61,468 bases of DNA from an uncultured Bacilli bacterium (GTDB lineage: Bacteria; Bacillota_I; Bacilli_A; RF39; UBA660), in assembly GCA_944358355.1 (NCBI GenBank), contig CALVQY010000001.1:1-61468 (forward strand). The letters are read 5' to 3'. The notes beneath the pieces are model-generated. The model was not told the origin of the DNA and made no database searches. It was given only the letters and a program-made list of their open reading frames with translations. A program made the position numbers and the translations under genes. Below are positions 9,498 to 34,903 of this stretch, in pieces. How positions within the stretch are numbered: position 1 is the stretch's first letter; each line of letters opens with the position of its first letter.

Positions 9498-10064
9498 ATG
9501 AATTACCCTACGGGGATAAAAAAAGAACATAGACAAATTATAAATTATAGTCATAGAGGAATGACTTTAGAAGATGATATTAATCATAGTAATAATTACT
9601 ATAGAGAAAAAGATATCGCTTATATCTATAAAAAGCCTACTCCTATCAAAGTCACTAAAGTTGACTTTAGAAAAGATAGAACCTCAACGATTAAAGAAGC
9701 TTTTTATCAAGAACCATCAACTACTGACTATAATGGAATATATAAAGGAAAATATATTGATTTTGAAGCCAAAGAAACAAAACAAAAAACTTCTTTTCCC
9801 CTTGCAAATATTCATCCTCACCAATTAAAACATTTAGAAAATATAACAAGACATGGGGGAATTGGATTTATAATTGTACGTTTTTCAAATCTTAATGAAA
9901 CGTATTTATTAAAAGAAGAGGACCTTTTTTCGTTTACTGAAAAACAAAAAAGAAAATCAATACCGCTTAAGTATTTTAAAGATAAAGGGTATTTAATAAA
10001 AGAAAACTACAATCCTAGATTGGATTACTTAAAAATTGTTGATAATTTTTTGGAGGTAAAATAA
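9498..10064 (+). CDS. recU: Holliday junction resolvase RecU
   Basis: 188 aa. NRGMTLEDDIN, KKPTPIK, STTDYNGIYKGKYIDFEAKETK.KTSFPL are near-identical to conserved blocks of B. subtilis RecU. It lies directly upstream of ponA. Confidence 0.95.
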   Translation: MNYPTGIKKEHRQIINYSHRGMTLEDDINHSNNYYREKDIAYIYKKPTPIKVTKVDFRKDRTSTIKEAFYQEPSTTDYNGIYKGKYIDFEAKETKQKTSFPLANIHPHQLKHLENITRHGGIGFIIVRFSNLNETYLLKEEDLFSFTEKQKRKSIPLKYFKDKGYLIKENYNPRLDYLKIVDNFLEVK

Positions 10065-10065
10065 T

Positions 10066-16049: not shown

Positions 16050-17681
16050 TCAATTATTTGGTATTTGTAGTACTTGACCAATAGAAAGTAAATTAGATGT
16101 TAAATTATTTAAAGTTTTAATAGCATCAACTGTAGTTCCAAATTTATTAGCAATACTCCATAAACTATCACCTGAGGCTACTGTATAGGTAGTATAAGTA
16201 GGATTAGTTGGAAAATTAGAGCCTGCTGTAGGAATAATTAGTACTTGTCCAATTGAAAGTAAATTAGATGTCAAACTATTTGCAGATTTTAAATTATTAA
16301 CAGTAACACCAAAACGATTTGCTATACTCCATAAACTATCACCTGAGGCTACTGTATAAGTAGTAGGAACTGTTACGTTATCTTCACTATCTTCTAAATC
16401 ATCTCCAGCACTGATTCCAGGTATAATTAATGATTGGCCTATACTTAAAGTATCACTAACTAAATCATTAGCATCTTTTATCTCTTGTACAGTAACTCCA
16501 AAACGTCTTGCTATACTCCAAAGACTATCTCCTCTTCCTACTGTATAATAAAATACTGCCCCATTTTCTTCACCATTATCTTCTTCATTAGTTCCTGGAA
16601 TAAGTAAAACTTGTCCTACACTTAAAGTATCACTAGTTAATTTATTAAGATCTCTTATTTGTTGAACCGTTACTCCAAATCTATTACCAATACTCCATAA
16701 GCTATCTCCCTTTACTACTGTATAAGGAAAAGATGGCCCTGTAATATTATCATTACCTTCATTACCATTACTTACACCCGGAATTATTAATACTTGTCCT
16801 ATACTCAAGGTATCACTAGTTAAATTGTTAGCTTGCCTTAAATCATTAACACTTATTCCATAACGACTTGCTATACTCCATAAACTATCACCTCTTTGCA
16901 CAGTATAAGTAACATTACCACTTGGAGGAACATTTCCATTATTACTTGGTATCCTTAAAACCTGTCCAACACTTAAGGTATCACTAGTTAAATTGTTAGC
17001 ATCTCTTAAAGCTTGTACAGTTACTCCATATCTTCTAGCAATACTATAAAGACTATCACCTTTTACTACTGTATAGAAATTATTACTACTACCTTCAGGT
17101 GGAATATAAGTAACACCAGCGTACTCTGCAATCGCTCTAACTACTGCTTCTACATAATTTAATAAATCATTTTGTAATTTAACTCTATCATTAGCATTAT
17201 CAATAAAACCATATTCAACTAATAATGATTGCATAGGAGAAGTTTCTCTAATAATATAATAATAATCTTTAGAAGGATCTTCAGGAAGTCTTCTCTGATA
17301 ATACTTACGCATAATTTGTCCTTCACTACCTATCTCTTCTAAGATAGACTGTGCTAAAGTAGAATTATTACGTAAAGCATAAATAACTTCTGCTCCTTCT
17401 CCGCCACCTGCATTTATATGATTAGAAATAAGTATAGCATTACTACTACCTCCAAAAGCTTCATTAGCACGTCTAAGACGATCTTCTCTACTTAAATTCT
17501 CATCATAATCTCTAGTTAAAACAGCAGGTATCCCTAATTCTCGTAATCTATCATACATATATAGCGATGCTTCTAATGTAAAGTCTTTCTCTTGTAAACC
17601 ATTAGAAACAGCACCAGGATCAGCACCCCCGTGTGAAGGAAGCAGAAAGTCCCAAATATTAAATATTATTCTAAAATTCAA
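16050..17681 (-). CDS. N-acetylmuramoyl-L-alanine amidase (Amidase_3) with six C-terminal LysM repeats; this is the 3' segment of a gene split by the element to its right
   Basis: The catalytic domain starts abruptly at ..PSHGGADPGAVSNGLQEKDF. The first ~16 codons of the track ORF (MNFRIIFNIWDFLLPS) are element-derived and overlap the recombinase stop. There are six repeats of YTV..GDSLWSIA.RFGVTV..L...N.L.S..L.IGQ.L.IP. The genuine N-terminus lies at 32834-32793. Confidence 0.9.
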   Translation of the reverse strand: MNFRIIFNIWDFLLPSHGGADPGAVSNGLQEKDFTLEASLYMYDRLRELGIPAVLTRDYDENLSREDRLRRANEAFGGSSNAILISNHINAGGGEGAEVIYALRNNSTLAQSILEEIGSEGQIMRKYYQRRLPEDPSKDYYYIIRETSPMQSLLVEYGFIDNANDRVKLQNDLLNYVEAVVRAIAEYAGVTYIPPEGSSNNFYTVVKGDSLYSIARRYGVTVQALRDANNLTSDTLSVGQVLRIPSNNGNVPPSGNVTYTVQRGDSLWSIASRYGISVNDLRQANNLTSDTLSIGQVLIIPGVSNGNEGNDNITGPSFPYTVVKGDSLWSIGNRFGVTVQQIRDLNKLTSDTLSVGQVLLIPGTNEEDNGEENGAVFYYTVGRGDSLWSIARRFGVTVQEIKDANDLVSDTLSIGQSLIIPGISAGDDLEDSEDNVTVPTTYTVASGDSLWSIANRFGVTVNNLKSANSLTSNLLSIGQVLIIPTAGSNFPTNPTYTTYTVASGDSLWSIANKFGTTVDAIKTLNNLTSNLLSIGQVLQIPNN

Positions 17682-19266
17682 AGTTCCATTCTATTTCAAT
17701 ATCTCTTGATTTAGTTTCTTTATCATAAACTCCTATATAAACCTTATCAATAAATTCATCTACTATTACTTTATTTAACTTACTTATATGTTTATATTTC
17801 TTTAAAATATCTTTTGCTTGTTTCTTATTATCAAGTCTCTGCTTTAAAGATTCTATTTCTTCATCTATTATAGAAACTCTTCTATTCATCTCTTCTATTT
17901 CTTTAGTATAATCACTTGATAACATCTTAAACATATCTTCAGTTATTACAAAATTAGCTTTATCTTCATAAAGTTTTCTATAATACGTTTTCTCTTCTTC
18001 TATTTTCCTATTAAGTAAAACCTTTTCTTGTTCTAGTATCTGAATTTCTTCATCATTTGTATTTTTAGATTCTCTGATGTTATATTCATTTTCTAGCTTT
18101 TCTTTATCATAATAGTTATCTAGTAAATCATTAATAGCATTTAATAAAACTTCTTCTAACTCATCTAACCTTATCGCTTTATTATTACAACAATTATGAA
18201 ATCTTCTAACACCCTTACATTGTAAATATGCTCTTTTACCATCCTTTACATTATAAACATTTCTCATAAATACCTTTTTACAGTTAAGACAATACACTTT
18301 TTTACTTAAGAAATGTATTTCACCTGATTTAATAGGGCATTCATGACTAGCAAGTCTTTTCTGTACCTTTTCCCAAGTATCTTTAGAAATAATAGACTCA
18401 TGAGCATTTTCTATTCTACACCAATCTTTTTTAGGTACAGTTTTAAACTTATGAACTTTATATCCTAAAGATGTTTTTTTACCCTGTACTAAATTACCAA
18501 TATATACTTCATTCCTAAGAATTTTTGCAATTGTATCATTAGTCCAACGCACACTATCATAATCGCAAGTTCCAGATACATACTTACTTCCATTTTGCTT
18601 TTTATATAAAGCTGGTGTTAAGACGTTAGCATTATTTAAATATTCGCTTATCTTATAATACCCATAACCATTCTCATACATTTTAAAAATATCTTTCACA
18701 ACTTTACTAGCGACAGGATCAATAACTAACTTATGTTTATCTTCACTACTTCTCATATAACCATAAGGTGCAAAACTACCCATAAATAAGCCATCTTCTC
18801 TTTTATTCTTTAATGATTTCTTAATATTTTGTGATAAGTCATCTAAATACCATTCATTTATTAGCCCATTAATTTGTCTTGATTTCTTATTAGATTCAAT
18901 ATTAGTATCAGCATTATCCACAATACTAACAAATCTAACATTCCATAGGGTGAACTTATTATGTAAGTATTTTTCTATTATCTCCATGTCTCTTGAAAAC
19001 CTAGATTGTGTTTTACATAAAACTAAATTAATTCTACCACTTTCACAATCTTTAATTAATCGTTCAAATTCAGGTCTATAAGTACCTGCCCCAGAGAAAT
19101 CATCATCAGAATAAATATCTACAACATCCCAGCCTTGCTTAAGAGCATATTTAATACACATACTCCTTTGATTTACAATACTATCACTATCATCATTCTT
19201 ATTAGCTTTAAACCTATCTTCATCAGATAATCTACAATATACACCTACCTTTTCTATCATAGCCAT
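17671..19266 (-). CDS. large serine recombinase (resolvase domain + recombinase domain + zinc ribbon + coiled coil)
   Basis: 531 aa. N-terminal catalytic block VGVYCRLSDEDR, NQR and the resolvase core. Cys-rich ribbon C-x2-C...C...C (CLNCKKVF..LQCKG..HNCCN). Long C-terminal coiled coil, as in the SpoIVCA and phage integrase class. Confidence 0.9.
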   Translation of the reverse strand: MAMIEKVGVYCRLSDEDRFKANKNDDSDSIVNQRSMCIKYALKQGWDVVDIYSDDDFSGAGTYRPEFERLIKDCESGRINLVLCKTQSRFSRDMEIIEKYLHNKFTLWNVRFVSIVDNADTNIESNKKSRQINGLINEWYLDDLSQNIKKSLKNKREDGLFMGSFAPYGYMRSSEDKHKLVIDPVASKVVKDIFKMYENGYGYYKISEYLNNANVLTPALYKKQNGSKYVSGTCDYDSVRWTNDTIAKILRNEVYIGNLVQGKKTSLGYKVHKFKTVPKKDWCRIENAHESIISKDTWEKVQKRLASHECPIKSGEIHFLSKKVYCLNCKKVFMRNVYNVKDGKRAYLQCKGVRRFHNCCNNKAIRLDELEEVLLNAINDLLDNYYDKEKLENEYNIRESKNTNDEEIQILEQEKVLLNRKIEEEKTYYRKLYEDKANFVITEDMFKMLSSDYTKEIEEMNRRVSIIDEEIESLKQRLDNKKQAKDILKKYKHISKLNKVIVDEFIDKVYIGVYDKETKSRDIEIEWNFEF

Positions 19267-21341: not shown

Positions 21342-23534
21342 TTATTTTTTTATAATACTCTTATCTGCGTTTTTAATCATGCTAGTTGACAAAGGTTTTG
21401 TTAAAGGTTCAGTGTATAAAACATCCAAACTATGTAAAGCTCTAGTCATAGCTACATATAATAACTTCATATCATTTTGATTAGTTGAAGAATAGAACTG
21501 TTCTGATGCGTTAGTAATAATCACACCATCAAACTCTAAACCTTTTGACAACTCGCTTGTTAAAATACATATACCACCATTATATTCAGAATCATCACTT
21601 GTTATTAAAGTTGTATTAAAGTTTTCATTATCTAAATATAATTTTATTTTTGCACAATCTTCAACATTTCTACATATGATACCAACAGATTTATAATCTT
21701 TATCTGAATATTGATATAATAATTCAGATATTCTCGTATTTATATCTTGTGTTTCTTCCTTCATATACTCAACTTCAGTTCCTGTTCTTATAACAGGATT
21801 TGCTTCGCTCATATTTAAATATCTTAAAATCTGATTTGCTGATCTTGTTATTTCCATTGTTGTTCTATAGCTCTTACTTAGTTGTAATATTTCACAATTA
21901 GAGTTAAAAATCTGTTTTTGAACATCTTCCCAAGAATCTACACCACGGCTTGGATATATTGATTGTGCTAAATCCCCAAAAATAGAAAATGTAGCATCAC
22001 TAAAAATCATTTTTAAAATATAATAATGAAACATACCTAAATCTTGAGCTTCGTCAACAATAACGTGAGCATATTTTTTAAATACTTCTTGTTGATTTCC
22101 ATTATTTAAAATATCAATATACATCAAAGATGGCAAATCTTCAAAATAAAACTTTTTCGATTTAATAGAGTTTAAAGTCTGTTTCTTAAGCAATTCAATT
22201 TCATCATGGCTTAAATTTTCTATGCAACTAACATTAGATACAAATTTTTTATATAAATTTAAAGTTGTAATTTTCAAAGGTTTAAAATAGTTTTTAATAG
22301 TTTTAGAACATCCTGTTTTTAATTCTTTCTTTATTTCGTCCAATTTATTCATAATATTTCTTTTTTCTTCAGACCCATTTGGAAGAGTAGATAACTCATC
22401 TTTATATTTTGATCTTACTAATTCATAAAGTCGCTCATTATCTTCCTTTATTTTTTGTATTAAAATTCTTTGTATATTAGTAGCTGTCACAGAAAAGCCA
22501 TTAATATCTCTAAAGTATGACTTTATACTATCCTCTGAAATTATTTCCATGCCATCGATTTCAATACCAGAAGAGAGAGAATTATTAACATATGTAGATA
22601 TATATGTATCAATTGCATTTTTATAATCAATTGATGTTTTTGCTTTTAAAACCTTTATTTCATTTTGATTATTAATCTTTTTAGAATTAATAATACTTAT
22701 TTTATCATCAAAAAAATATGTTGAAAAATCATCAAAAGTAAATTGACTAATATTTTCAGTATCTAAATCAGGTAATAATGCTGAAATATAATTTAAAAAA
22801 TACTTATTTGGGCCTATAATAATGAAATTTTCAGCTGTATATTTATCTTCATTATATATAAGATATGCAGCTCTATGTAAAGCTACTGTAGTTTTACCAC
22901 TACCAGCAACTCCTTGTACAATAATATTATCATTAAGTGGACGTCTAATAATCGCATTTTGTTCAGCCTGAATTGATGCAACAATATTTTTTAATCTTGC
23001 ATCTGCATTAGTTGTCAAAAAAGGTACTAATAACTCATCATCAGTAACTAAATCTGTATCCCTTACGCTAACTAACTTACCATCTTTAATAAAGATTTGA
23101 CTTTTTAAATTTAATTTTCCTGTAATAATACCTTCAGGTGCTTGATATTGAACATTACCAATACTTTGATCATAATATAATGTACAAACTGGAGTACGCC
23201 AATCGGTAGTTAAAATATTATTGTTTTCATCTGTTATAGTTGTTTTCCCTATATATATTTTATTATTATTTTTCGAACCATCTCTTTGAAAATCAATTCT
23301 ACCAAAATAAGGATTTAATTCTAAATTTTTTAATTTAGATAATCTTTTAATAATCATATCCTGTAAATGTTTAACTAAATCTTCATCTCCCCATTTTACT
23401 TCAGCATACCTTCCTTTATATTTATTAGGTATCTCTTCAAATTCTTTATTTTGATAAACTTTTTCCTCTTCTATTCTTTTTTGAACTTTTAATAAATACT
23501 CTTTTTCAATGTTAAATCTTTCATTATCTTTCAT
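21342..23534 (-). CDS. helD: HelD-type UvrD-like (superfamily 1) helicase / RNA polymerase-associated ATPase
   Basis: 730 aa. N-terminal block YFGRIDF...YIGKTTI......TDWRTPVCTLYY is characteristic of HelD/helicase IV. Walker A GVAGSGKTTVALHRAAYL, DEAQD Walker B and a C-terminal UvrD_C block (LYVAMTRALHSL). Confidence 0.8.
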   Translation of the reverse strand: MKDNERFNIEKEYLLKVQKRIEEEKVYQNKEFEEIPNKYKGRYAEVKWGDEDLVKHLQDMIIKRLSKLKNLELNPYFGRIDFQRDGSKNNNKIYIGKTTITDENNNILTTDWRTPVCTLYYDQSIGNVQYQAPEGIITGKLNLKSQIFIKDGKLVSVRDTDLVTDDELLVPFLTTNADARLKNIVASIQAEQNAIIRRPLNDNIIVQGVAGSGKTTVALHRAAYLIYNEDKYTAENFIIIGPNKYFLNYISALLPDLDTENISQFTFDDFSTYFFDDKISIINSKKINNQNEIKVLKAKTSIDYKNAIDTYISTYVNNSLSSGIEIDGMEIISEDSIKSYFRDINGFSVTATNIQRILIQKIKEDNERLYELVRSKYKDELSTLPNGSEEKRNIMNKLDEIKKELKTGCSKTIKNYFKPLKITTLNLYKKFVSNVSCIENLSHDEIELLKKQTLNSIKSKKFYFEDLPSLMYIDILNNGNQQEVFKKYAHVIVDEAQDLGMFHYYILKMIFSDATFSIFGDLAQSIYPSRGVDSWEDVQKQIFNSNCEILQLSKSYRTTMEITRSANQILRYLNMSEANPVIRTGTEVEYMKEETQDINTRISELLYQYSDKDYKSVGIICRNVEDCAKIKLYLDNENFNTTLITSDDSEYNGGICILTSELSKGLEFDGVIITNASEQFYSSTNQNDMKLLYVAMTRALHSLDVLYTEPLTKPLSTSMIKNADKSIIKK

Positions 23535-23558
23535 TACATATTCCCCCTAAAAATCATA

Positions 23559-23981
23559 CTACAATTCTATAAATTCATTATTATAAGCTTTCATTATCAT
23601 ATCTTTTGCTAAAATATCAATATCATCTAAATCTTCAATTTTAACTTTTTTAATCTCATAAAAATTTTCTTCGCAACATCTTTTCAATTCCTCTCCTCCT
23701 AACATTGGTGTTCCTGTTACTATTTTACAACTAAAAAAATGTGCAATTGAGTCATTTCCTTCATCTACTCCTAAATACCCAATAATATCAACATCCACGG
23801 AAAACTCCTCTTTTAATTCACGTTTTACATTTTCTTCCAAAGTTTCACCTTGCTTTATCCCACCTCCAGGTATTACATAGTATTCTTTTATACTTCCATC
23901 CTCTTTAATTCTCCTTCTAAACATAGCATACACTTTATCACCATCTATTATAATACCACGCGCACTTACTCTTTTTTCCAT
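23559..23981 (-). CDS. NUDIX hydrolase
   Basis: 140 aa. Nudix box GGGIKQGETLEENVKRELKEEFSV (G-x5-E-x7-REUxEExGU). Confidence 0.9.
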   Translation of the reverse strand: MEKRVSARGIIIDGDKVYAMFRRRIKEDGSIKEYYVIPGGGIKQGETLEENVKRELKEEFSVDVDIIGYLGVDEGNDSIAHFFSCKIVTGTPMLGGEELKRCCEENFYEIKKVKIEDLDDIDILAKDMIMKAYNNEFIEL

Positions 23982-25636
23982 TGTTTATCCTCCTTTAATT
24001 CTTCACTGATTAATGCCAACACAGTTTCACCAAAAAACAAAATATTATGTTGGACTTCTATAGGGTTTTTAATAGCATAGATTATATCAAAATCTGCTAT
24101 TTTTGTCAAAGTGTTTATCTTTCCAATTTCTTTCAAATATTTTTTCAAATCATTAAGTACTCTTTCATATCCGAAAGAAAATATTCTCTTTGTATTTAAA
24201 AAACATTTTATTAATACAAGTAACTTTTTTAAATACTTTTTATCAATACTAACTTTATTGTTAATTATATCTATATGTAACCTTCTACATTCGTGTAATA
24301 CATTAGGCAAATTTTCTGTATCATTTTGTACAATATAGCTATAATCAATTTTATTTTTTATAATTTTTCCATATAAAGTTGGATTTACTTGATAGTTTTG
24401 TTTTTCATAAAGCATAACTTTTGTTTTACCATCTATCCACCCAGTATTAAATTCGTTTTTTGAATATACTGTTAACCCTATATGAATTTTAAATTTTTCC
24501 AATTTTTTAGTAAAAATAACAACTTCATTTACTACATATTTATTCAATATTATATATATATCTATATCTGAACAACCAACTACAATTTCATTTTTCCCAC
24601 CAGAGCCTCCTAAAATAATGCAACTAAGATTATCCTTGAATTGATTAATTGCTAATTGCACTGTAGCTTTAATAGTTATTTTATATTCTAATGGAAAATT
24701 TATATACTTATACTTTTTTAAGATACTATCAATTTTAATAGAGATATTATTAGATTTTTCTACTATAATTTTATCAATCAAACCCTTAAGAGAAAAATTT
24801 ATATTTTCTTTTACATAAGAATCTAAATGATTATATTTTATATTTAATCTTTTATAAAAATATTCTACTATTTTTATTTTGTCTTCTTGTAAAATATTAG
24901 ACTTTAAAAATAAATCTACTAAATTATAAGTGTGTAATATAAAATCATTCATTCGATTAATTTCAGATTGATAATCGTTCTTTGTTACAGCACTATTCTC
25001 TCTTTTTATATACTTATATAACTCTATATTATTTGAAGAAACTGTAGGAGAATTAAAAATTAAAATAGGCATCATCCCATAATCTTCATGTAATGTATTT
25101 TCCAAAAACGATAAATTTGTTTGACAGAAATTTTCTCTATTTATAACATATGACCAAGGTGTTGCAAAAATCCTATTAGATTCACAAAAATATAATAATG
25201 CTTTTAACCCATCTATATTATCAAAGTATGGTAAATCAAAACGACAATCATACTCTTTGTTTTCAACACATTGTACAGAGCATTTTAATAAATCAACAGG
25301 ATATTGTTTTAAATAATTATCAACTTTAACTATTGAATTAGGCACTAACTCATCATCAGAATCTAAAAAAATAAAATAATCACCATGACATTTAGATATA
25401 CCAATATTTCTAGCGACAGAAATACCCTGATGAGAAATTTTATAGTAATTAATTATTTTAGATAAATTATTTTGCCTAATAAATTGCAAAACAACTTCAC
25501 TAGACAAATCTTCAGAGCCATCATCAATAATAACTATTTCTATATCATTAGACTGTTTCAAAACAGATTTAATACTATTTAATATGGTATTTTCTGAATT
25601 ATACATAGGAATAACAATACTATATCTATATTTCAT
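23966..25636 (-). CDS. fusion protein: N-terminal family-2 glycosyltransferase + C-terminal Pol-beta-superfamily nucleotidyltransferase-like domain
   Basis: 556 aa. GT2: YSIVIPMYNSE...VIIDDGSEDLS...FLDSDDE. C-terminal half: ILGGSGGKNEIVVGCSDIDIYIIL fits the hG[GS]-x9-13-D-h-D-h minimal NTase signature and is followed by a helical region. Confidence 0.7.
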   Translation of the reverse strand: MKYRYSIVIPMYNSENTILNSIKSVLKQSNDIEIVIIDDGSEDLSSEVVLQFIRQNNLSKIINYYKISHQGISVARNIGISKCHGDYFIFLDSDDELVPNSIVKVDNYLKQYPVDLLKCSVQCVENKEYDCRFDLPYFDNIDGLKALLYFCESNRIFATPWSYVINRENFCQTNLSFLENTLHEDYGMMPILIFNSPTVSSNNIELYKYIKRENSAVTKNDYQSEINRMNDFILHTYNLVDLFLKSNILQEDKIKIVEYFYKRLNIKYNHLDSYVKENINFSLKGLIDKIIVEKSNNISIKIDSILKKYKYINFPLEYKITIKATVQLAINQFKDNLSCIILGGSGGKNEIVVGCSDIDIYIILNKYVVNEVVIFTKKLEKFKIHIGLTVYSKNEFNTGWIDGKTKVMLYEKQNYQVNPTLYGKIIKNKIDYSYIVQNDTENLPNVLHECRRLHIDIINNKVSIDKKYLKKLLVLIKCFLNTKRIFSFGYERVLNDLKKYLKEIGKINTLTKIADFDIIYAIKNPIEVQHNILFFGETVLALISEELKEDKQWKKE

Positions 25637-26261
25637 TTTTTAACACCTTCATTAACCTTTTTTCATTAATTACATCTTCATTATTTAATATTTTAACACT
25701 GTGTTTTATTTCATCTAAACTATTAGGATTAGGACCATGAATTTGATTGAAAAATATCATTTTATATGCTGAATCATCATAAAGAAAATTAGCAGGAAAT
25801 TTTTTTATATCAACCTTTAGTCCCGACAAATCAATATCATATAATGGTTTGTCAAAAGTTATATCATCTTCATTTAAAAATTTTAAATAGTATAAATCAG
25901 TATTACTTACATACTTTTTTCTTATATCCTTCTTTAATTGATATAATTTTTGTAATGATGTGGTTATATTATCATTATTTATATCATTTATATTAAAAAG
26001 AACAACAATTCCATTATTTTTAGGATAAATATGATAATAACCCATAATAGATGTGAGCAATTTTTTTCGAAGTTCTAAACAATTACCACTACTCATCATA
26101 ACATCATATTCATATATCATAGATGCTATTTTTGTCCAATTATCCATATAATATAATTTAATACTTTTAATATTTTCAATATTAATTACATTTTTAAAAT
26201 AATATCTAAGTGATACCTCATTGTTAAGAGCATCTGGTTTTATAATATTAATTACATTCAT
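25626..26261 (-). CDS. divergent nucleoside-diphosphate-kinase-like protein
   Basis: 211 aa. N-terminal IIKPDA and C-terminal NQIHGPNPNSLDEIKHSVKIL mirror the NDK motifs (M/I)IKPDG and N.IHGSDS...A..EI..WF, with a ~60-aa insertion between them. By-eye assignment only. Confidence 0.45.
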   Translation of the reverse strand: MNVINIIKPDALNNEVSLRYYFKNVINIENIKSIKLYYMDNWTKIASMIYEYDVMMSSGNCLELRKKLLTSIMGYYHIYPKNNGIVVLFNINDINNDNITTSLQKLYQLKKDIRKKYVSNTDLYYLKFLNEDDITFDKPLYDIDLSGLKVDIKKFPANFLYDDSAYKMIFFNQIHGPNPNSLDEIKHSVKILNNEDVINEKRLMKVLKNEI

Positions 26262-27325
26262 ACAACCTCCATATTAGATAGCATATTTTCAAAAATCAAT
26301 AAAACATTACTATCATTTTTGTTAAATAAATAATAAAAATATTCTACTAAATAAATTGAATAGAAATAATCATTATACTCCATTTCCTCTATATTAAATA
26401 CACATAATAATCTCATTATAATATAATATTTAACATCACTACTAATACATATTTTATTTTTTTTTAAAATATTAATATATCTAAGAACATACTCTTTTCT
26501 AATATTACTACTTTTATATATACAATTTATCTCGATGGAGTTCATATTATTAATTATTATAAAAGGCTCAAATAAAATATATTGTTGAAGTGCTTTTTCA
26601 TGCAAAAAATAAGATTTAGAATGATATTTAGGACAAAAATAATTATCATAAAATAATGTAGATATAAACATAATAGCAAACTCACCAATTATACTATTAT
26701 ATCCAGCAGTAACCAAATCAAAAAAGCATGGTTTTATAGAAATATTTAAAGTATTAGGATCTCCTTGACTAAAAAAACACATTTTCTCATTTTCCTTTTC
26801 AAAATATTCAACAACTTCATCTATAATCATATTAATGCTTTTACATCTTTTTCCATTAATAAATATAATTTTAGAAAAATCATTATCATCCTTATACCAT
26901 TTTTTTAGTCTATTCTTAATCCTACCTTTAAAAAATCTGTCATTTGCACTATAATCTAAAATTTTTGTATATTTTAAATTAATATCATAAACAGATAAAA
27001 TATCATTCATTTTATTAATAACATTTATATTTATACTCGCTTCTTTATCATTTTTGACTAATAAATCATTAAGCAAACCTTTATTTTTTTCTACAGTATC
27101 TTCGTATTCATATATGATTACATACTTATTATCTTTCAAAAAGTTATAATATATCATCTTTTTTATAGGTAATTTATTTATTGCAAGTTTATATCCATTC
27201 AATTCATCTTGATAATCTGATTTATTAAGTACTTTATAAAAGTATTTTTTATCATTATAAATAAAATTTCCATTTATTGAATTATTCTGTTTATTAACAA
27301 TAAATTTTAACTTATCCTTTTTCAT
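26258..27325 (-). CDS. APH/choline-kinase-like small-molecule phosphotransferase
   Basis: 355 aa. Putative beta3 Lys (YFYKV), hinge IIYEYED, catalytic-loop-like SQGDPNTLNI (compare HGDxxxxN) and metal-binding FFDLVTAG. By-eye assignment. Confidence 0.45.
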   Translation of the reverse strand: MKKDKLKFIVNKQNNSINGNFIYNDKKYFYKVLNKSDYQDELNGYKLAINKLPIKKMIYYNFLKDNKYVIIYEYEDTVEKNKGLLNDLLVKNDKEASININVINKMNDILSVYDINLKYTKILDYSANDRFFKGRIKNRLKKWYKDDNDFSKIIFINGKRCKSINMIIDEVVEYFEKENEKMCFFSQGDPNTLNISIKPCFFDLVTAGYNSIIGEFAIMFISTLFYDNYFCPKYHSKSYFLHEKALQQYILFEPFIIINNMNSIEINCIYKSSNIRKEYVLRYINILKKNKICISSDVKYYIIMRLLCVFNIEEMEYNDYFYSIYLVEYFYYLFNKNDSNVLLIFENMLSNMEVV

Positions 27326-27338
27326 ATTACACCTTACA

Positions 27339-28067
27339 CTAATTCATTAAACTACGACCACCATCTACAACAAAGATACTGCCAGTTGTATATCTAGAAA
27401 AAACCTCTAATATCGTTTTAATAAATACAGCTATTTCATCAGGAAGAAAAATCTTCTTGAGTGGAACTTTAGCTAGTGCCACTTCCTTTTCCTCCTTATT
27501 ATAATTCCAAGAAGCATTCATATCTGTTTCTACTGCACCAAATGAAATTGCATTAATAGTAATATTTCTAGGAGCAAACTCTAATGCCAATTCTTTAGTC
27601 AAAATTTCCAAGGCACTTTTTGAGGAATCATATGCATATTTATTTGTTCTAGGTACATTTGAATGTATTGAAAGTACATTTAATATAAATAAGTTTGACT
27701 GTACATATTTTGTAACCGCCGATATACAATTACAAGTTCCTATATAATTATTTTTCATTATATATAAATAATCTTTATCGTTATAATGTGAAAAATCAGA
27801 TATCATTTGTTTAGAAGCATTATTTACAAGAATATCTATATGTTGTCTTTCACTATATATTTCATAAACTACTTTATCTACTTCTGCATAACTCGATATA
27901 TCACATTTTTTAAAAAAAATATTTATAGAATCAAAATATTTTACATTTGAATCATCTGTATCTAATATATAAATATAATTATCAATCGATAGTAATTCAG
28001 CTACTGCCTTCCCAATACCATTTGCTCCACCAGTTATGATAATAATATTATTACGTAAGCGACTCAT
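27339..28067 (-). CDS. short-chain dehydrogenase/reductase (SDR)
   Basis: 242 aa. TGGANGIGKAVA cofactor motif, NNAS, and the catalytic YDSSK (YxxxK). Confidence 0.9.
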   Translation of the reverse strand: MSRLRNNIIIITGGANGIGKAVAELLSIDNYIYILDTDDSNVKYFDSINIFFKKCDISSYAEVDKVVYEIYSERQHIDILVNNASKQMISDFSHYNDKDYLYIMKNNYIGTCNCISAVTKYVQSNLFILNVLSIHSNVPRTNKYAYDSSKSALEILTKELALEFAPRNITINAISFGAVETDMNASWNYNKEEKEVALAKVPLKKIFLPDEIAVFIKTILEVFSRYTTGSIFVVDGGRSLMN

Positions 28068-28121
28068 TTATATCCACCTCTTTGCCAAAAAGGTTTGGTG
28101 ATATAACCAAACTTAAAAAAT

Positions 28122-28150
28122 ATAATAATAACATACTACATTTTTGTCAA
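28122..28150 (-). promoter_or_regulatory. sigma-A-type promoter of the SDR-to-helD operon
   Basis: The minus strand reads TTGACA (28150-28145), a 17-nt spacer, then TATTAT (28127-28122). The leader contains a small hairpin TTTGGT..ACCAAA followed by CCTTTTT before the RBS AGAGGTGGA. Confidence 0.6.
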
Positions 28151-28169: not shown

Positions 28170-28478
28170 TTACCTAATAAAATCATCTAATTTTTTATCT
28201 AAAATAATAGATAATTTAACTAGCTTTTCTAAAGGTATCATCTTAGTACTATCATTCTCACTTTCAAATCTCTTATAATGATTATGATTATAATCTAAAA
28301 GTGCTGAAATATTCTCAGTAGAATATGGATTAATAGATGTATTTAAGTTTTGTTTCTTAAACTCATTATATTTTTCTAAACGAAACTTCTTAATATTTCT
28401 ACAAATATTAACATACATTTCTTCTTTATTTACATTTTGTAATAAATCTTGTAACTCTTGAAAACTATGAATAGCCAT
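28170..28478 (-). CDS. small protein with a degenerate XRE-like HTH
   Basis: 102 aa. ICRNIKKFRLEKY...STENISALL resembles a Cro/C1 HTH. Weak. Confidence 0.4.
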   Translation of the reverse strand: MAIHSFQELQDLLQNVNKEEMYVNICRNIKKFRLEKYNEFKKQNLNTSINPYSTENISALLDYNHNHYKRFESENDSTKMIPLEKLVKLSIILDKKLDDFIR

Positions 28479-28587
28479 TTTACCACCCTCTCATTTAATT
28501 ATGACATTTTAGAGTTTTTAAAATAGCCACATATTCACGCAATTAATGTATTGAAAAGTAAATAATTAATGATATAATTAAAGTGGC

Positions 28588-28615
28588 ACAAAAAAAGAAT
28601 ATATAGCATATTCTT
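28588..28615 (-). terminator. intrinsic terminator of the 28614-28886 XRE gene
   Basis: AAGAATAT (28595-28602) pairs with ATATTCTT (28608-28615), a perfect 8-bp stem. The minus strand continues with a U run. Confidence 0.65.
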
Positions 28616-28886
28616 ATCGTCTTGGAATACGATGATTAACAACTGGAGTTCTTTCTACAAATAATTGTTCTAAAGATACTCCAAGAGTATCAGCAATATG
28701 TCCAATATAATCTATTCTCGTATTACGTTTAGCATTTTCTATATTAGAAACATAAGTAGGAGTAGTCCCAAGTTCATCTGCAAAATCTTCTTGAGACCAA
28801 TTCTTTTTAAGTCTAAAATAAACTATATTATTCGCTAATATTTTACGAGCTTGATTTTCATAATGTTTACTCTTAATAACCATCAC
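28614..28886 (-). CDS. XRE-family HTH transcriptional regulator
   Basis: 90 aa. ILANNIVYFRLKKNWSQEDFADELGTTPTYVSNIENAKRNTRIDYIGHIADTLGVSLEQLF. Confidence 0.85.
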   Translation of the reverse strand: MMVIKSKHYENQARKILANNIVYFRLKKNWSQEDFADELGTTPTYVSNIENAKRNTRIDYIGHIADTLGVSLEQLFVERTPVVNHRIPRR

Positions 28887-29594: not shown

Positions 29595-29630
29595 AACTAG
29601 CATCTATAAAAGTATGCTAGTTTTATTATA
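29595..29630. terminator. bidirectional terminator between the 28994-29569 gene and mob
   Basis: AACTAGCAT (29595-29603) pairs with ATGCTAGTT (29614-29622), followed by TTTATT. Confidence 0.7.
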
Positions 29631-30897
29631 AACTTAATTCATCATCGTTAGATATATCATAGCCGTCATTATAATTTATACCTACATAATCAAATAGTTC
29701 ATCTTCTTTACTAGTATTATTAGCAATATCATAAACATCATCTTGATTAAAGTCATTATTGTCATAATAGTCCTTAATTTCGCCTGTAACAACATCTTTT
29801 GTAATTTCATTACCAATTTGTAATAACTTTCTAAAAAATGTCTTTATCGCCTTTAAAATAGCATTAATATAATCTCTTAACTTATTATTCTCTATTATAA
29901 GGTTACTATTTCTAGTTTTAAGATACTTTATTTCTCTTTGATATTTTTTGTTTTCTTTATCTAAAGAATTATAACTATTTACATAACTATTAATAACATT
30001 AAATACTTGCTCTATTTTAGGCTGTAACTCTTTAACCTTTTTAGTTTCCATAATAACCATATTCATAGTATCAAAAGTATCTTTTTCAACAACAATATGT
30101 TTCTTATCAAAAGGAATAGTTTTAGAAGTTTTCATTTGTTCTTCTAACTTATTCATAGCCTTATCTAATCTTTCATTTCTAGTATTTAAGTTCTGTTCCA
30201 ATTTTCTATTAATATTCTTATAGTCTTTAATCTTAATGTGCTTTCTATCACTACCTTTAATACCACGTTCTAAATCATAACCTTTATCTATTAATCTTTT
30301 ATGATATTTATCTTGTAATTCTGATAAATGAATATTATCTTTAATATATTGTTTCTTAGATATAGTATATCTTTCTGTTTTAGTTCTATTATCAAACTTT
30401 CTAACTAAAGGAACAACTACACAATGAATATGAGGTGTTTTCTCGTCCAGATGAATTACACTATGTAAAACTTGTTCTTTTTTATAACCCAAATCTTCAT
30501 AAACAAATTCCATACAAGTATTAGCCCACTCTTTTATATCATCTATTGTCATATTATCAAAAAATTCAGATGTAGCAGTAAATAATAATTCATCTGCAAC
30601 TACATTTCTTGACTTATCTAACATCTGTTTAAAAGTTTTCTTTCTATCTTCACGTTCTGTTTTCATTCTCTCATCATGTTCTTTTTTATATTCTTTAGTT
30701 AAATTATAAAAACCCTTAACATATTTATCTGTCAAGGATACTAATTCAATATTATTCTTACTTAAATTTTTATTTATATCAGGATTGGAATTATAAGCTT
30801 TCTTCTCCCTTTTATTATGAGAACCTATTTGTGCTAAATCATTTAATGTAAAAATAGGCTCACTTCTAAATATTGCATAATTTAAATTTATAAATAT
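29626..30897 (-). CDS. mob: MobV-family (Mob_Pre) relaxase; the conserved N-terminus lies upstream of the first canonical start
   Basis: HxDE..PHxH motif IHLDEKTPHIHCVVVPL. The in-frame extension 30736-30897 encodes ..NYAIFRSEPIFTLNDLAQIGSHNKREKKAYNSNPDINKNLSKNNIEL, matching the MobV motif I/II region (MSYxVxR...HNxR...N.DI). No ATG, GTG or TTG occurs between the TAG at 30898-30900 and the TTG at 30735. Confidence 0.8.
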   Translation of the reverse strand: MFINLNYAIFRSEPIFTLNDLAQIGSHNKREKKAYNSNPDINKNLSKNNIELVSLTDKYVKGFYNLTKEYKKEHDERMKTEREDRKKTFKQMLDKSRNVVADELLFTATSEFFDNMTIDDIKEWANTCMEFVYEDLGYKKEQVLHSVIHLDEKTPHIHCVVVPLVRKFDNRTKTERYTISKKQYIKDNIHLSELQDKYHKRLIDKGYDLERGIKGSDRKHIKIKDYKNINRKLEQNLNTRNERLDKAMNKLEEQMKTSKTIPFDKKHIVVEKDTFDTMNMVIMETKKVKELQPKIEQVFNVINSYVNSYNSLDKENKKYQREIKYLKTRNSNLIIENNKLRDYINAILKAIKTFFRKLLQIGNEITKDVVTGEIKDYYDNNDFNQDDVYDIANNTSKEDELFDYVGINYNDGYDISNDDELSL

Positions 30898-30929: not shown

Positions 30930-32675
30930 TTATTTATTATTAACCAACGGTTCATACTGCTGTAATGAATTAATTCTATATTCTACTAATTTATTAATTT
31001 TTAAACTATTAACATATAAATTAAATTCAACTTTATATTCTTCGTTCATTCTTTTATAAAATAATTCCCATATTTCTAAAAACCATGACCACGTATTTTC
31101 ATCAATCTCATTAGATAAATCAGGAACTAAATAATTATTATTTCTACAAATCTTAATAAATTCTTCTTGTACTATTTCTTTATCATTATCAATAAAACGA
31201 GAATCCAACCATTCTAATAAACTACAATCATATTCTAAGTTCTTAAAAGTTTTCTCAATATTTAATAATTTATCACTTAAGTATTTTGTTTTAATCTTGT
31301 CATTATATTCAATTGCTAAATCACTTAAAATTTTAGATTCTTTAAACTTAAAACCAAATAACTTTATTTTATTCTCATAAATACTTTTATTTACATCATA
31401 ATAATTCTTAAACATAATATCGAAAAAAACAGAAGCTACTTCATCTAAATTTAGATTTAATTCTAATGCACTATTCCATATAAGTATTTCATAAAAATCA
31501 TTAATAAATATATCTAATGTAATAAACTTATACTTACCATTTTTCATATGTTTATAAAGATTATTAATTTTGAAAGTTATTTTATCAATAGATAAATAAA
31601 ATTTATCTTTTTCATTAGGTTTCTTCTCTTCCAAGTAACTATCAATAGTTTTATTTAGTTTATTTTTTAAATCTGCACTATATTCACATTTGTATATATC
31701 TAATATATAATTTAAAATACAGGTGTCATCATTATTACTAAATACAGAATTAAAATAATGATTCATAATTCTAGAATTAATTTCTTCATCAATTACATAT
31801 TTAAAAGAATCATTATCATCTCTTTTCTCATCTGGCTTATAAACTTCTTCAGTACATTCAATAGCAACGGACATACAATTCTTCAGAACTAACAAATTAA
31901 CTTTCTTATTTTCTTTTATTTCAACATAATTATTAATTACTTCCTTAAATAAATTAATTCCTTTTATTATTGTACGTAAATTTCTAATATCATGTTTTTT
32001 TATATAATCATTAATAAAAGGAGTTACTTCTATTTCTTCGATATAACTACATATTTCACTAGTTACTAAATTTCTTATAGATTCATCAGAAAATTTTTGT
32101 ATTTTATATTCCTTTTCTATAATTTTTTCTTTAAACCTATTCCATTTTTTTCTATCACTATCAATCATATTATTTTCATCACCAATAATAACTATCTTCA
32201 CTTTATTAAATTGTGAAAATTCCTCAATCATCCCCATAATATCTTCAATTAAAATATTATTACTTTTTCGTTCTAAATCATCTATTACAATAATTAATGA
32301 TTTAGACTCTAATAAAGTACTATATTCAGATATCAAACCTTTTCTAGACAACTCAGGAGAATTTATGGTAAAGCCACAAATTGAAAAAGAAGCTTTAACA
32401 TTTTTAACAAATTTATGTAATATTATTTTCTTTTTATTCAATGAACTTAACTTTTTAAACAACTCTCTTGCTACACTATTTTCAATAGAATCAAAACTAG
32501 TTTTTCCAAATAAAGTTATATATATAAAATTTTCATTATGTTCTTTTATATATTTATTTACATAATAACTCTTACCTATACCCCAAGGACCATTAATAAA
32601 TATTTTCTTATAAGTATTATCATTATCTAATTGATTTAAAATTTCTAAAATAGCACTTGATTCCAACATAATCAC
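30930..32675 (-). CDS. KAP-family P-loop NTPase
   Basis: 581 aa. Walker A INGPWGIGKSYY and Walker B IVIDDLERK are typical KAP signatures, followed by a long helical C-terminal region. Confidence 0.75.
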   Translation of the reverse strand: MIMLESSAILEILNQLDNDNTYKKIFINGPWGIGKSYYVNKYIKEHNENFIYITLFGKTSFDSIENSVARELFKKLSSLNKKKIILHKFVKNVKASFSICGFTINSPELSRKGLISEYSTLLESKSLIIVIDDLERKSNNILIEDIMGMIEEFSQFNKVKIVIIGDENNMIDSDRKKWNRFKEKIIEKEYKIQKFSDESIRNLVTSEICSYIEEIEVTPFINDYIKKHDIRNLRTIIKGINLFKEVINNYVEIKENKKVNLLVLKNCMSVAIECTEEVYKPDEKRDDNDSFKYVIDEEINSRIMNHYFNSVFSNNDDTCILNYILDIYKCEYSADLKNKLNKTIDSYLEEKKPNEKDKFYLSIDKITFKINNLYKHMKNGKYKFITLDIFINDFYEILIWNSALELNLNLDEVASVFFDIMFKNYYDVNKSIYENKIKLFGFKFKESKILSDLAIEYNDKIKTKYLSDKLLNIEKTFKNLEYDCSLLEWLDSRFIDNDKEIVQEEFIKICRNNNYLVPDLSNEIDENTWSWFLEIWELFYKRMNEEYKVEFNLYVNSLKINKLVEYRINSLQQYEPLVNNK

Positions 32676-33458: not shown

Positions 33459-33917
33459 TTAAACTAATATATTTCCATTTGCATCAGCTTTTTTACATAA
33501 ACCAATAATAAAATCAATAAGTGCAATAAAACTTGGAATAAAAGTCCAACAGAATAATATAAATAGAATGCCTGTTCCTATTTTACCAGCATAAAACTTA
33601 TGAACACCTATTCCACCCAAAAAGAATGCTAATAAACAGTACACAACTTTATTTACTGCTTTTGTATTATTTGCAATATATGTAGGTTGTGGAGCATTTT
33701 GATTATTACTTACATTTATGTTAATTCCTGAATTAGAATTATTATCTCTTTTTTCTTCTTTTTTTGTAACAATCAAATTATTTTCAGTTTCATAAATTTC
33801 TACTTCATCGCCAACATCTGGAGTAAAATTGATATCTGTTATTCTTACTTCTTTAATACCACCAGTATCAGTTCCAATAGAAACAATATCACCGTTTATT
33901 TTAATGATTTTAGCCAT
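33459..33917 (-). CDS. TM2-domain membrane protein with an N-terminal soluble beta-rich domain
   Basis: C-terminal KVVYCLLAFFLGGIGVHKFYAGKIGTGILFILF is the TM2 signature. The start was chosen at the ATG at 33917 behind AAAGGAG; the track ORF starts at 33941. Confidence 0.7.
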   Translation of the reverse strand: MAKIIKINGDIVSIGTDTGGIKEVRITDINFTPDVGDEVEIYETENNLIVTKKEEKRDNNSNSGININVSNNQNAPQPTYIANNTKAVNKVVYCLLAFFLGGIGVHKFYAGKIGTGILFILFCWTFIPSFIALIDFIIGLCKKADANGNILV

Positions 33918-34047
33918 ACAAGCAACTCCTTTCTTCATCATTATAACACATCTTTCAAAAAAATACCATTTTAAATTATATTTGTATAATTAATAATACT
34001 AGTATTCATAATAATATTAGTTAAAATATTATTAAGGAGGTCAATGT

Positions 34048-34374
34048 ATGAATAATATTAAAGAGTTAAGAAAACAAAAAAATATTTTACAGACTAAATT
34101 AGCTTTAGATCTTAATTTAACTCAAGAAGCAATTAGTTCATACGAAACAGAAAGAGTAACACCAAGTGCAGATGTTCTTATAAAACTTGCTGATTACTTT
34201 AACACTAATATTGACTACTTACTTTGTCGTACTAAATATAATTTACCAATATCAGATATAAAACCAAATAATATAAATGAAGAACAATATAATTTATTAA
34301 TTAAAATTAATAAATTATCAAAAATTGATATTGCCAAAGTTGAAGGATATATTGATTCTTTAAATTCCAAATAA
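34048..34374 (+). CDS. XRE-family HTH transcriptional regulator
   Basis: 108 aa. IKELRKQKNILQTKLALDLNLTQEAISSYETERVTPSADVLIKLADYFNTNIDYLL. Confidence 0.85.
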   Translation: MNNIKELRKQKNILQTKLALDLNLTQEAISSYETERVTPSADVLIKLADYFNTNIDYLLCRTKYNLPISDIKPNNINEEQYNLLIKINKLSKIDIAKVEGYIDSLNSK

Positions 34375-34436
34375 ATTAAAAAAAGTGCGAATGTTATCCA
34401 TTTCACTTTTATATATTTTTTTATAAATACATTATG

Positions 34437-34886
34437 CTAAATTTCAATACTTTTAAAATCACACATAAATTCTAGTATAGAATTCATTACTATATGCTTT
34501 ATCATATCTTTTGCCATTATATCAAAATTATCTAAATCAAAAACATTAACTTTTCTAATTTCATAATAATAATTAACAAAACATCTTTCTAATTCTTCTC
34601 CCCCAAGAATAGGAATACCATTAATTAATTTACATTAAAAAAAATGAGCAATAGAATCATGATTTTCATCAAAACCTAAATAACCTATAATATCAACATT
34701 TATTGATAGTTATTCCTTTAATTCTCATCTTAATGTTTCTTCTAAAGTTTCCCCTTTTTCTATTCCTCCACCAGGTATTACATAATACTCTTTAAAAGTT
34801 CTATCACCATTAACTCTTCTTCTAAAAATAGTATATACTTCATCACTATCAATAATAATTCCTCTAACACTAATTCTTTTACTCAT
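34437..34886 (-). pseudogene. NUDIX hydrolase pseudogene (paralog of 23559-23981) with three in-frame stops
   Basis: The 450-nt frame reads MSKRISVRGIIIDSDEVYTIFRRRVNGDRTFKEYYVIPGGGIEKGETLEETLR*ELKE*LSINVDIIGYLGFDENHDSIAHFF*CKLINGIPILGGEELERC.... It is colinear with the intact copy. Stops TGA, TAA, TAA; no frameshift. Confidence 0.85.
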
Positions 34887-34903
34887 TTTTCACGTCTCCT
34901 ATA

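Follow-up and report, generated by a model that had tools for sequence, protein, structure and literature searches.

A conserved mobile-element cassette of gut Bacillota combining an APH-fold kinase, a nucleotide-kinase-like protein, a nucleotidyltransferase and a Nudix protein

Enzymes of the kinds considered here are known from several described systems. In the bifidobacterial galacto-N-biose/lacto-N-biose (GNB/LNB) pathway, an anomeric kinase resembling the aminoglycoside phosphotransferases (APHs), NahK, is combined with a HIT uridylyltransferase and an epimerase of the short-chain dehydrogenase/reductase (SDR) family (bioRxiv 10.64898/2026.09.13.751320). HelD acts on stalled RNA polymerase (PMC8655204, PMC12802891). 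In Bacillus subtilis, class I HelD raises rifampicin resistance, and genes for glycosyltransferases of the GT-A fold rank with those most often located behind rifampicin-responsive promoters (PMC12802891). Horizontal movement of HelD genes among gut bacteria is also known (PMC8655204). We analyzed a 61,468-nucleotide stretch of DNA from an uncultured Bacilli bacterium (contig CALVQY010000001.1, assembly GCA_944358355.1; hereafter the window), in which a six-gene operon encodes, in this order, an SDR, an APH-fold kinase, a protein with a predicted nucleoside diphosphate kinase (NDK) fold, a fusion of a family 2 glycosyltransferase (GT2) to a putative minimal Pol-beta nucleotidyltransferase (NTase), a Nudix protein and a HelD-type ATPase. 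The window matches a contig of 'Candidatus Onthousia excrementipullorum' (class Bacilli), a genome assembled from chicken-gut metagenomes. The operon is one form of a cassette that is conserved, widespread, carried on mobile elements and previously undescribed.

Recurrence and composition of the cassette

Loci were gathered around homologs of the kinase and the NTase, and their open reading frames (ORFs) were labelled by BLAST. Among about 45 loci, the kinase is joined by an NTase, a Nudix protein and a nucleotide kinase in essentially every locus that is long enough. In some loci this core nucleotide kinase is the NDK-fold protein; in others it is a P-loop protein resembling adenylate kinase or thymidylate kinase. 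The hosts are gut Bacillota, represented by metagenome-assembled genomes from chickens, rabbits and humans, together with one Lactococcus plasmid, and across these many hosts identity goes down to about 30%. A metagenome scan gave 8 loci, mostly short. No plasmid matched the region in megablast, no member of a phage collection matched the kinase in tblastn, and a pattern scan of IMG/VR found no relative.

The architecture of the window's operon, including HelD, recurs in three further lineages (L035/L036, L037 and L043) at approximately 45–50% protein identity, and gene order and overlaps are kept in the four lineages. HelD orthologs hold the same operon position in each of them. Relative to L035 and L037, respectively, identity is 50% and 45% for HelD and 48% and 35% for the kinase; it is about 47% for the GT2/NTase protein, 35–37% for the NDK-like protein and 63–69% for the Nudix protein. 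Because the identity of HelD lies within the range of its neighbors (45–50% versus 35–69%), HelD has diverged together with them. This recurrence and co-divergence speak against HelD as an accidental passenger. Similar architectures lack HelD in L031–L033, where the SDR is also missing, and lack both GT2 and HelD in L034, L044 and L045. Overall, HelD is present in four of five GT2-bearing lineages and in none of three GT2-less ones, and GT2 is missing from more than half of the cassettes.

Recurrence in independent lineages indicates that the operon is a real unit. A sequence-only reading of this DNA had proposed the six genes as a candidate undescribed system, and the gene-neighborhood survey refutes the alternative that they do not co-occur outside this strain, since the set recurs in independent lineages at 45–50% identity. 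Its view of all six genes as one unit holds in part: the co-occurrence is real, but SDR, GT2 and HelD are accessory, and the core consists of kinase, NTase, Nudix protein and nucleotide kinase. Its statement that the combination is not a described pathway is borne out, in that the kinase and the NDK-like protein belong to no Pfam, NCBIfam or PADLOC family and literature searches found no published description of the cassette.

Besides SDR, GT2 and HelD, the accessory genes of the variants encode a histidine phosphatase, a second Nudix protein, a lactonase and a hexapeptide acyltransferase. A further accessory protein of 377 amino acids carries HCxxC and HGHxE motifs resembling those of GalT/Apa-type HIT enzymes, a likeness of motifs only; a profile search of this HIT-like family against the Protein Data Bank (PDB) returned nothing.

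Domain fusions join members of the core in several combinations. The GT2–NTase fusion is found in several (at least five) diverged lineages, and a 395-amino-acid protein in L026 (6092–7279) joins an NTase to a C-terminal Nudix domain. The kinase of L037 and the long kinases (515–542 amino acids) of L043–L045 have a HAD phosphatase fused to them. On p275D (NZ_CP016702.1), a conjugative dairy plasmid of Lactococcus lactis (L047), the core lies between two copies of IS6 (6813–10471); there, a 711-amino-acid protein with weak matches to Nudix, P-loop kinase and NTase domains is followed by a split kinase homolog and then by a hexapeptide acyltransferase. Judged by its sequence, this plasmid locus is a compact, fused version of the cassette core. 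We also observed in L026 a 402-amino-acid fusion of thymidylate-kinase-like and adenylate-kinase-like P-loop domains. The N-terminal half of a 500-amino-acid protein, compared with the kinase family by HHalign, gave an insignificant 4%.

The encoded protein families

The first protein of the operon is a classical SDR (Pfam adh_short, 3e-36). Its matches in NCBIfam are generic ones to FabG and glucose-1-dehydrogenase-like models, all below their cutoffs, and an SDR is encoded in most, but not all, related cassettes.

The kinase has no match in Pfam (including APH, PF01636), NCBIfam (including the resistance models) or PADLOC, and 23 relatives likewise reach neither the Pfam APH model nor an NCBIfam resistance model. 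The family comprises more than 139 homologs. Residues K31, E41, D189, N194 (in QGDPNTLN) and D203 (in FFDL) are invariant in 23 homologs, and they fill the positions of the ATP-binding lysine and glutamate, the catalytic-loop aspartate and asparagine, and the metal-binding aspartate of kinases. The AlphaFold model (pLDDT 85.5) has a bilobal kinase fold; Foldseek gave 62 PDB matches at E ≤ 0.001, headed by APH(3')-IIIa (3.5e-7) and including APH(4), the amicoumacin kinase AmiN and ethanolamine kinase. A profile search of the kinase family against PDB returned nothing. The protein is basic, with an isoelectric point of 8.7.

The best structural match of the kinase overall is gp311 of Bacillus phage G (E 1.5e-8, TM 0.58). 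This unannotated protein is encoded at a locus (L046; JN638751, 18188–25141) together with a HAD phosphatase (gp310) and a glucose-1-phosphate thymidylyltransferase (gp309), and the three genes are flanked by homologs of DNA alpha-glucosyltransferases (gp306 and gp313). The cluster from gp306 to gp313 looks like a phage module that supplies DNA glucosylation with a sugar donor of its own making. HHalign of the kinase family against gp311 was insignificant (probability 0.1%).

The third protein, likewise, has no match in Pfam, NCBIfam or PADLOC, and its family numbers 47 representatives among 1.84 billion proteins. Among 38 family members, there is no variation at K8, P9, Y50, K110, R114 or H175, and at least 90% keep D10 and N172; K8/P9/D10, Y50, R114, N172 and H175 were equated with the catalytic set of NDK by motif order and not by structural superposition. 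An insertion of about 55 residues separates the arginine from the NxxH motif. The AlphaFold model has a pLDDT of 96.6, and all 50 of its top 50 PDB matches in Foldseek are NDKs, with probabilities up to 0.99, target TM scores up to 0.65 and E values of only 0.02–0.2. The family profile retrieved only noise and no NDK from PDB, and HHalign against five canonical NDKs gave a probability of 7%, confined to the NxxH stretch. On the strength of the model, the protein is assigned a divergent NDK fold. Because the HHalign comparisons are insignificant, the link between this protein and NDK, like that between the kinase and gp311, is one of structure or motifs only.

In the fusion protein, the glycosyltransferase part is recognized by Glycos_transf_2 (1.5e-28, 100 bits against a cutoff of 23, residues 6–136) and by a match to NCBIfam PRK10073 that spans residues 4–264, and the sequence contains the GT2 motifs DDGS and DSDDE. 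GT2 is a separate gene in L037, L043 and L005. The NTase part scores below the cutoff of NTP_transf_2 (15.9 bits versus 21, residues 339–395), whereas its homolog in L005 scores above it (30.4 bits). In the family alignment, the motif GS-x10-SDxD is characteristic, with G54, S55, S66, D67 and D69 invariant. Weak matches connect the NTase family to a minimal nucleotidyltransferase (MNT-type) structure (9xbd_E, 0.0016), to the aminoglycoside nucleotidyltransferase (ANT) ANT(4')-II (7.9e-5) and to the CBASS cyclase family. The NTase family is closed, with 59 proteins that are either standalone (224–267 amino acids) or GT2 fusions (529–556 amino acids).

The Nudix protein is matched by Pfam NUDIX (2.3e-12, 47.5 bits against a cutoff of 21) and is of the MutT/NudI/NudG type by NCBIfam. 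Its Nudix box, GX5EX7REUXEEXGU, lies at residues 40–62, with serine replacing the last glycine. With 63–74% identity across lineages, it is the best-conserved protein of the cassette.

The last protein falls just below the curated cutoff of NCBIfam HelD_BACSU (NF041464; E 7e-124, 414.4 bits versus 419) and aligns over residues 61–711 with the solved B. subtilis HelD (6wvk_H, E 1.5e-87). In class I HelD, an N-terminal coiled-coil arm reaches with its acidic tip into the secondary channel of RNA polymerase. The first 60 residues of the window's protein align with neither the model nor the structure; they look helical and carry an acidic GDED patch. By sequence comparison, the protein is predicted to be a class I HelD-type RNA polymerase recycling ATPase.

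The sequence-only reading was thus right in each of its six motif-level assignments: SDR, APH-fold kinase, divergent NDK, GT2 with minimal Pol-beta NTase, Nudix and HelD. For two proteins that the profile databases miss, it was modelling with AlphaFold and Foldseek that upheld the call, giving the APH fold for the 355-residue protein and the NDK fold for the 211-residue protein.

Genetic setting and expression signals

The ORF list contains six minus-strand ORFs in a contiguous run (21342–28067), in agreement with the earlier description of a six-gene unit, its coordinates and its spacings (Table 1). From the SDR gene through the HelD gene, the spacings are +13, -4, -11, -16 and +24 nucleotides, and a Shine-Dalgarno-like sequence lies 6–9 nucleotides 5' of all six start codons.

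Table 1. Coordinates of the operon, its candidate expression signals and the surrounding element in the window.
Feature	Position	Strand	Remarks
SDR gene	27339-28067	-	242 aa
APH-fold kinase gene	26258-27325	-	355 aa
NDK-like gene	25626-26261	-	211 aa
GT2/NTase fusion gene	23966-25636	-	556 aa
GT2 (GT-A fold) domain	24767-25636	-	about first 290 residues of 556-aa fusion
Minimal Pol-beta NTase with helical domain, kanamycin-nucleotidyltransferase-like layout	23966-24739	-	about residues 300-556 of fusion
Nudix gene	23559-23981	-	140 aa
HelD gene	21342-23534	-	730 aa
Promoter-like TTGACA-17-TATTAT (sigma-A-type)	28122-28150	-	candidate; 5' of operon
Inverted repeat GTTTGGTTATATCACCAAAC	28093-28112	-	perfect 7 bp, GTTTGGT-N6-ACCAAAC, then CTTTTT; directly after -10 hexamer
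Promoter-like TTGACA-17-(TG)TATAAT, internal	24081-24109	-	12/12 consensus matches, extended -10; within NTase coding region, 5' of Nudix-HelD
Unassigned 102-aa ORF and 90-aa XRE/HTH_3 regulator	28170-28886	-	upstream of operon; candidate regulators
Large serine recombinase	17671-19266	-	Resolvase + Recombinase + Zn_ribbon_recom
N-acetylmuramoyl-L-alanine amidase (amidase_3, 6xLysM)	16050-17681	-	start overlapped by 3' end of recombinase gene
Mob_Pre (MobV) relaxase	29626-30735	-	Mob_Pre 2.5e-25
KAP-family NTPase	30930-32675	-	KAP_NTPase 5.6e-14; PADLOC candidate PDC-S49 2.7e-29

The promoter-like sequence ahead of the operon has identical hexamers in the relative L032 at a similar distance from the first ATG (-92, versus -83 in the window). 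In DNA of about 25% G+C, promoter-like matches occur at chance level (91 observed versus 76 ± 9 expected), and this promoter is therefore a candidate only. The inverted repeat that follows it could, from its sequence, serve the upstream XRE regulator as an operator or else form a 5' stem-loop. The regulator gene (28614–28886) matches HTH_3 at 2.2e-14, and XRE-type genes also lie ahead of the cassette in L005 and L036. No riboswitch was found by Rfam in the window operon or in seven related loci.

The single sigma-A promoter sequence described for the operon is present, but as an account of its expression it is incomplete, since a second near-consensus site precedes the Nudix gene. This internal site lies about 100–125 nucleotides ahead of the Nudix start in the window. 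L032, L035 and L037 also have a near-consensus site, 125 to 128 nucleotides upstream of the Nudix ATG, so that it is kept in four lineages. The NTase protein at this site has 47–63% identity among these three and the window, and the codons that make up the -35 hexamer, TTG and TCG, are rare ones. Since a semi-conserved peptide (LTK...FDII) is encoded across the site, protein constraint may contribute to its conservation. The pattern suggests that Nudix and HelD may be transcribed separately from an internal promoter. If functional, such a promoter would express the two genes independently of the upstream enzymes, as one would expect of a pair with a protective or regulatory role.

We also searched for the B. 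subtilis-type rifampicin alarm motif, a convergent dual promoter of the form TTGN3-N17/18-[AT]6-N45-55-[AT]6-N18/19-N3CAA (PMC12802891). It has 9 matches in the window versus 17 ± 4 in shuffled sequences, and none of them lies at the operon promoter or the internal promoter.

The operon had been described as cargo of a mobilizable element next to a KAP NTPase, and the serine recombinase, Mob_Pre relaxase and KAP NTPase were all found. An earlier assignment of two adjacent recombinases was wrong, the gene at 16050–17681 being that of the amidase. The junction between recombinase and amidase/LysM genes is also present in L032 (6773–9769) and L033, whose element is 63%-related, and its occurrence in all three suggests a shared integration target. 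The cargo of L032 and L033 consists of only Abi_2, a 218-amino-acid protein of unknown function and the four-gene core. In L001 (8592–18816), and as a pattern in L001–L004, a penicillin-binding protein (PBP) gene is seemingly split into PBP_dimer plus Transpeptidase and Transpeptidase plus PASTA parts; the insert of about 8.5 kb in L001 contains only the cassette, a serine recombinase and a gene of 78 codons' product length (78 amino acids). Elements of the L005 type have TnpV, a relaxase and ParB, and the contexts of L034, L036 and L037 look chromosomal. The cassette is often the main or only cargo of serine-recombinase elements; as it is often the only cargo of small ones, it must give a selectable benefit.

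Beyond the KAP gene, positions 33459–36046 hold genes for a TM2-domain protein, for an XRE regulator and for a protein of the Fic/DOC family (34904–36046), which may be part of the same element. The chromosomal flanks contain a class B RNase P RNA (273 bits, 7842–8184), a tRNA gene (59922–59992) and housekeeping genes (class A PBP, DnaD, CCA-adding enzyme and HhH-GPD glycosylase), which places the mobile element inside an otherwise ordinary chromosome.

Possible functions and comparison with known systems

Our favored reading, which we hold at a probability of roughly one in three (about 0.35), is that the operon is a self-contained pathway making a nucleotide-linked donor for its own fused GT2, as a variant of a cassette that activates a compound and transfers it. 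Every step of this pathway is inferred from fold and gene context. The APH-fold kinase would phosphorylate a hydroxyl group on a small molecule that is neutral or anionic, in the likeliest case a sugar or something similar to one, and the SDR would tailor this compound. The NTase domain would link the phosphorylated compound to a nucleotide, and GT2 would take the product as donor, move the group to a cytoplasmic acceptor and release nucleoside diphosphate (NDP). The NDK-fold protein, or the adenylate-kinase-like and thymidylate-kinase-like P-loop proteins in other variants, would keep the required nucleoside triphosphate (NTP) charged. The MutT-type Nudix protein would hydrolyze surplus nucleotide-linked product or triphosphate, maybe from an internal promoter of its own that it shares with HelD, and HelD would remove stalled RNA polymerase. 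The acceptor or the product may have a connection to transcription, to judge from the recurrence of HelD with GT2.

We favor this donor pathway because the core co-occurs in about 45 loci and because domain fusions join its steps (GT2–NTase, NTase–Nudix, Nudix/P-loop/NTase and HAD–kinase). It is also favored by the accessory genes, which are typical of sugar-phosphate and nucleotide-sugar chemistry, and by two parallels: gp311, the nearest structural neighbor of the kinase, is part of the same kinase/phosphatase/NTase/glycosyltransferase logic, and the GNB/LNB pathway combines an APH-like kinase, a HIT uridylyltransferase and an SDR. Aminoglycosides are cationic, and the enzymes that bind them, such as the APHs, are acidic. 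The basic kinase differs from them, and all six proteins appear to be soluble, with no transmembrane-like segment in any; both features further argue for the donor pathway.

Several points weigh against it. Known sugar-1-phosphate nucleotidyltransferases have the RmlA/GalU fold, and Pol-beta NTases normally nucleotidylate hydroxyls and not phosphates. By Pfam, no RmlA/GalU-type NTP_transferase domain is encoded in the operon, the NTase being of the Pol-beta type; Pol-beta NTases are not known to make nucleotide sugars, so that the central step would be without precedent. GT2-less cassettes, more than half of the total, would need another transferase. Since the nucleotide kinase belongs to the core also where GT2 is missing, recycling the NDP released by GT2 cannot be its only role, and the idea that the NDK-like protein serves solely this purpose was weakened when GT2-less variants were seen to keep it. 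The likeness of the kinase to gp311 is structural and does not extend to significant HHalign similarity, and the Nudix protein resembles MutT-type NTP hydrolases rather than known NDP-sugar hydrolases. A pure glycan pathway would have no place for HelD, although it is found in four of the five lineages that bear GT2. Of the three hypotheses put forward in the sequence-only reading (a nucleotide-activated donor for GT2, an antibiotic-inactivation island and a nucleotide-derived anti-phage pathway), the comparative data favor chemistry of the first type, with a nucleotide-linked donor and GT2; HelD is left unexplained, and sequence tools cannot separate the three.

A first alternative, which we regard as doubtful, is that the cassette makes a non-canonical, potentially toxic nucleotide directed against phages or competitors. 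The kinase and the nucleotide kinases would build an unusual nucleoside up to the triphosphate, SDR or GT2 would modify it, and self-protection would come from the Nudix protein, by hydrolyzing the analog, and from HelD, by clearing stalled RNA polymerase. The interchange of three nucleotide-kinase folds (NDK-, adenylate-kinase- and thymidylate-kinase-like) is easiest to understand if a nucleotide is phosphorylated. That the most conserved protein of the cassette is a Nudix of MutT/NudI/NudG type fits this view, as do the known action of HelD on stalled polymerase (PMC8655204, PMC12802891) and the separate, conserved and strong promoter-like site ahead of the Nudix–HelD pair, a layout that would suit immunity genes. 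The neighbors include Abi_2 and the KAP NTPase (PDC-S49), the Lactococcus locus is flanked by IS6 on a conjugative dairy plasmid, and the NTase is weakly similar to CBASS cyclases. However, no system in PADLOC-DB 2.0 was matched. This database gave generic matches only, with the single-gene candidate PDC-S07 for the Nudix protein (3e-11), GajB-type UvrD models for HelD and weak PDC-S09, PDC-M05A and cyclase matches for the NTase, and none for the kinase, NDK-like, HIT-like or P-loop proteins. A recognizable sensor or effector is lacking, the roles of NTase and GT2 are left unexplained, several loci have ordinary chromosomal contexts, and HelD and GT2 are missing from many variants. The absence of the cassette from IMG/VR and the phage collection is neutral for defense and lends no positive support.

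Similarly tentative, and in our estimate also rather doubtful, is an unrecognized mobile-element system in which a non-canonical nucleotide or nucleotide-linked metabolite acts on transcription and Nudix and HelD, transcribed separately, would form a built-in immunity pair. Such a system would be a new chemical defense or weapon or, equally, a route of resistance to RNA polymerase inhibitors, and it would be built from three protein families without a profile model.

We consider it unlikely that the operon is a multi-enzyme antibiotic-inactivation island, in which kinase, NTase, GT2 and SDR would modify one drug at hydroxyl or keto groups, probably an RNA polymerase inhibitor, while HelD protects the target. 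Here the best structural and profile neighbors of the kinase and NTase are suggestive, being the resistance enzymes APH(3'), APH(4), AmiN and ANT(4')-II. Fusions of two drug-modifying enzymes are known, and carriers with TnpV and a large serine recombinase are similar to resistance transposons of the Tn4451 type. The hosts live in the gut of chickens, rabbits and humans, and the co-occurrence of HelD with GT2 recalls the rifampicin resistance raised by class I HelD and the GT-A genes common behind rifampicin-responsive promoters (PMC12802891). Yet the rifampicin dual-promoter motif is absent at the operon, its 9 matches in the window falling below the 17 expected, and no protein of the window reaches an NCBIfam resistance model. 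The always-present Nudix protein and nucleotide kinase would have no role, nor would the HIT-like protein and the phosphatases; the kinase is basic; and divergence to about 30% identity over many hosts argues for an old function and not for recent drug selection.

That the six genes are unrelated neighboring cargo, with HelD above all an independent passenger, is highly improbable and largely refuted: HelD and SDR are indeed missing from the close relatives L031–L033 and HelD genes do move horizontally among gut bacteria (PMC8655204), but gene order and overlaps persist in four lineages, the divergence of HelD equals that of its neighbors, several domain fusions join core members, and in L001–L004 a PBP gene is split by a recombinase element whose only cargo is the cassette.

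Gut Bacillota of chickens, rabbits and humans commonly carry the cassette, which is also present on a conjugative plasmid of a dairy Lactococcus. Knowing its product would give a function to three orphan protein families, would test whether a Pol-beta nucleotidyltransferase can feed a glycosyltransferase, and would explain the repeated recruitment of an RNA polymerase recycling factor, HelD, into an enzyme operon. It would also show whether a resistance, surface-modification or anti-phage trait is spreading horizontally in the microbiomes of food animals and humans.

As a whole, the cassette matches no described pathway, resistance island or defense system; the likenesses concern its parts. 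With the Leloir and GNB/LNB pathways (NahK, GalT2, GalE) it shares the combination of an APH-like kinase, a nucleotidyl-transferring enzyme and an SDR, and related cassettes carry the GalT/Apa-like protein, by its HIT motifs only. In contrast, the SDR of the operon is classical and not of the extended GalE type, the window has a Pol-beta NTase in place of the HIT enzyme, and the cassette, carried by mobile elements, lacks both a transporter and a phosphorylase. The phage G module resembles it in the kinase-fold gp311, which is structurally nearest to the 355-residue protein, in the HAD phosphatase, sugar-1-phosphate NTase and glycosyltransferases alongside, and in that a HAD domain is fused to the kinase in some cassette relatives. 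It differs in that sequence similarity is insignificant, the phage NTase has the RmlA fold and not that of Pol-beta, and the phage transferases are of AGT type (the DNA alpha-glucosyltransferase family) and not GT2; the phage side has no NDK-like protein, Nudix or HelD, and the module is itself uncharacterized.

Compared with drug-modifying enzymes, the kinase has the fold and catalytic motif of APH(3') and APH(4), and the NTase, with its GS...DxD head, helical domain and weak ANT(4')-II matches, resembles the kanamycin nucleotidyltransferase ANT(4'). Unlike these enzymes, the cassette reaches no resistance-family model, its kinase and NTase are strictly coupled with a Nudix protein and a nucleotide kinase, and its kinase is basic and not acidic. 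The HelD of the operon is similar to B. subtilis class I HelD over its full length from residue 61, and its short N-terminal segment looks helical and bears the acidic GDED patch; it differs in being the last gene of a mobile enzyme operon and not a stand-alone chromosomal gene, in an N-terminal arm that is about 24 residues shorter and does not align, and in the lack of a convergent dual promoter at the operon. Finally, the 211-residue protein departs from canonical Ndk in its insertion of about 55 residues, in being missed by Pfam, profile search and HHalign, and in the tiny size of its family (47 representatives in 1.84 billion proteins), whereas the fold and the positions of KPD, Y, R and NxxH are kept.

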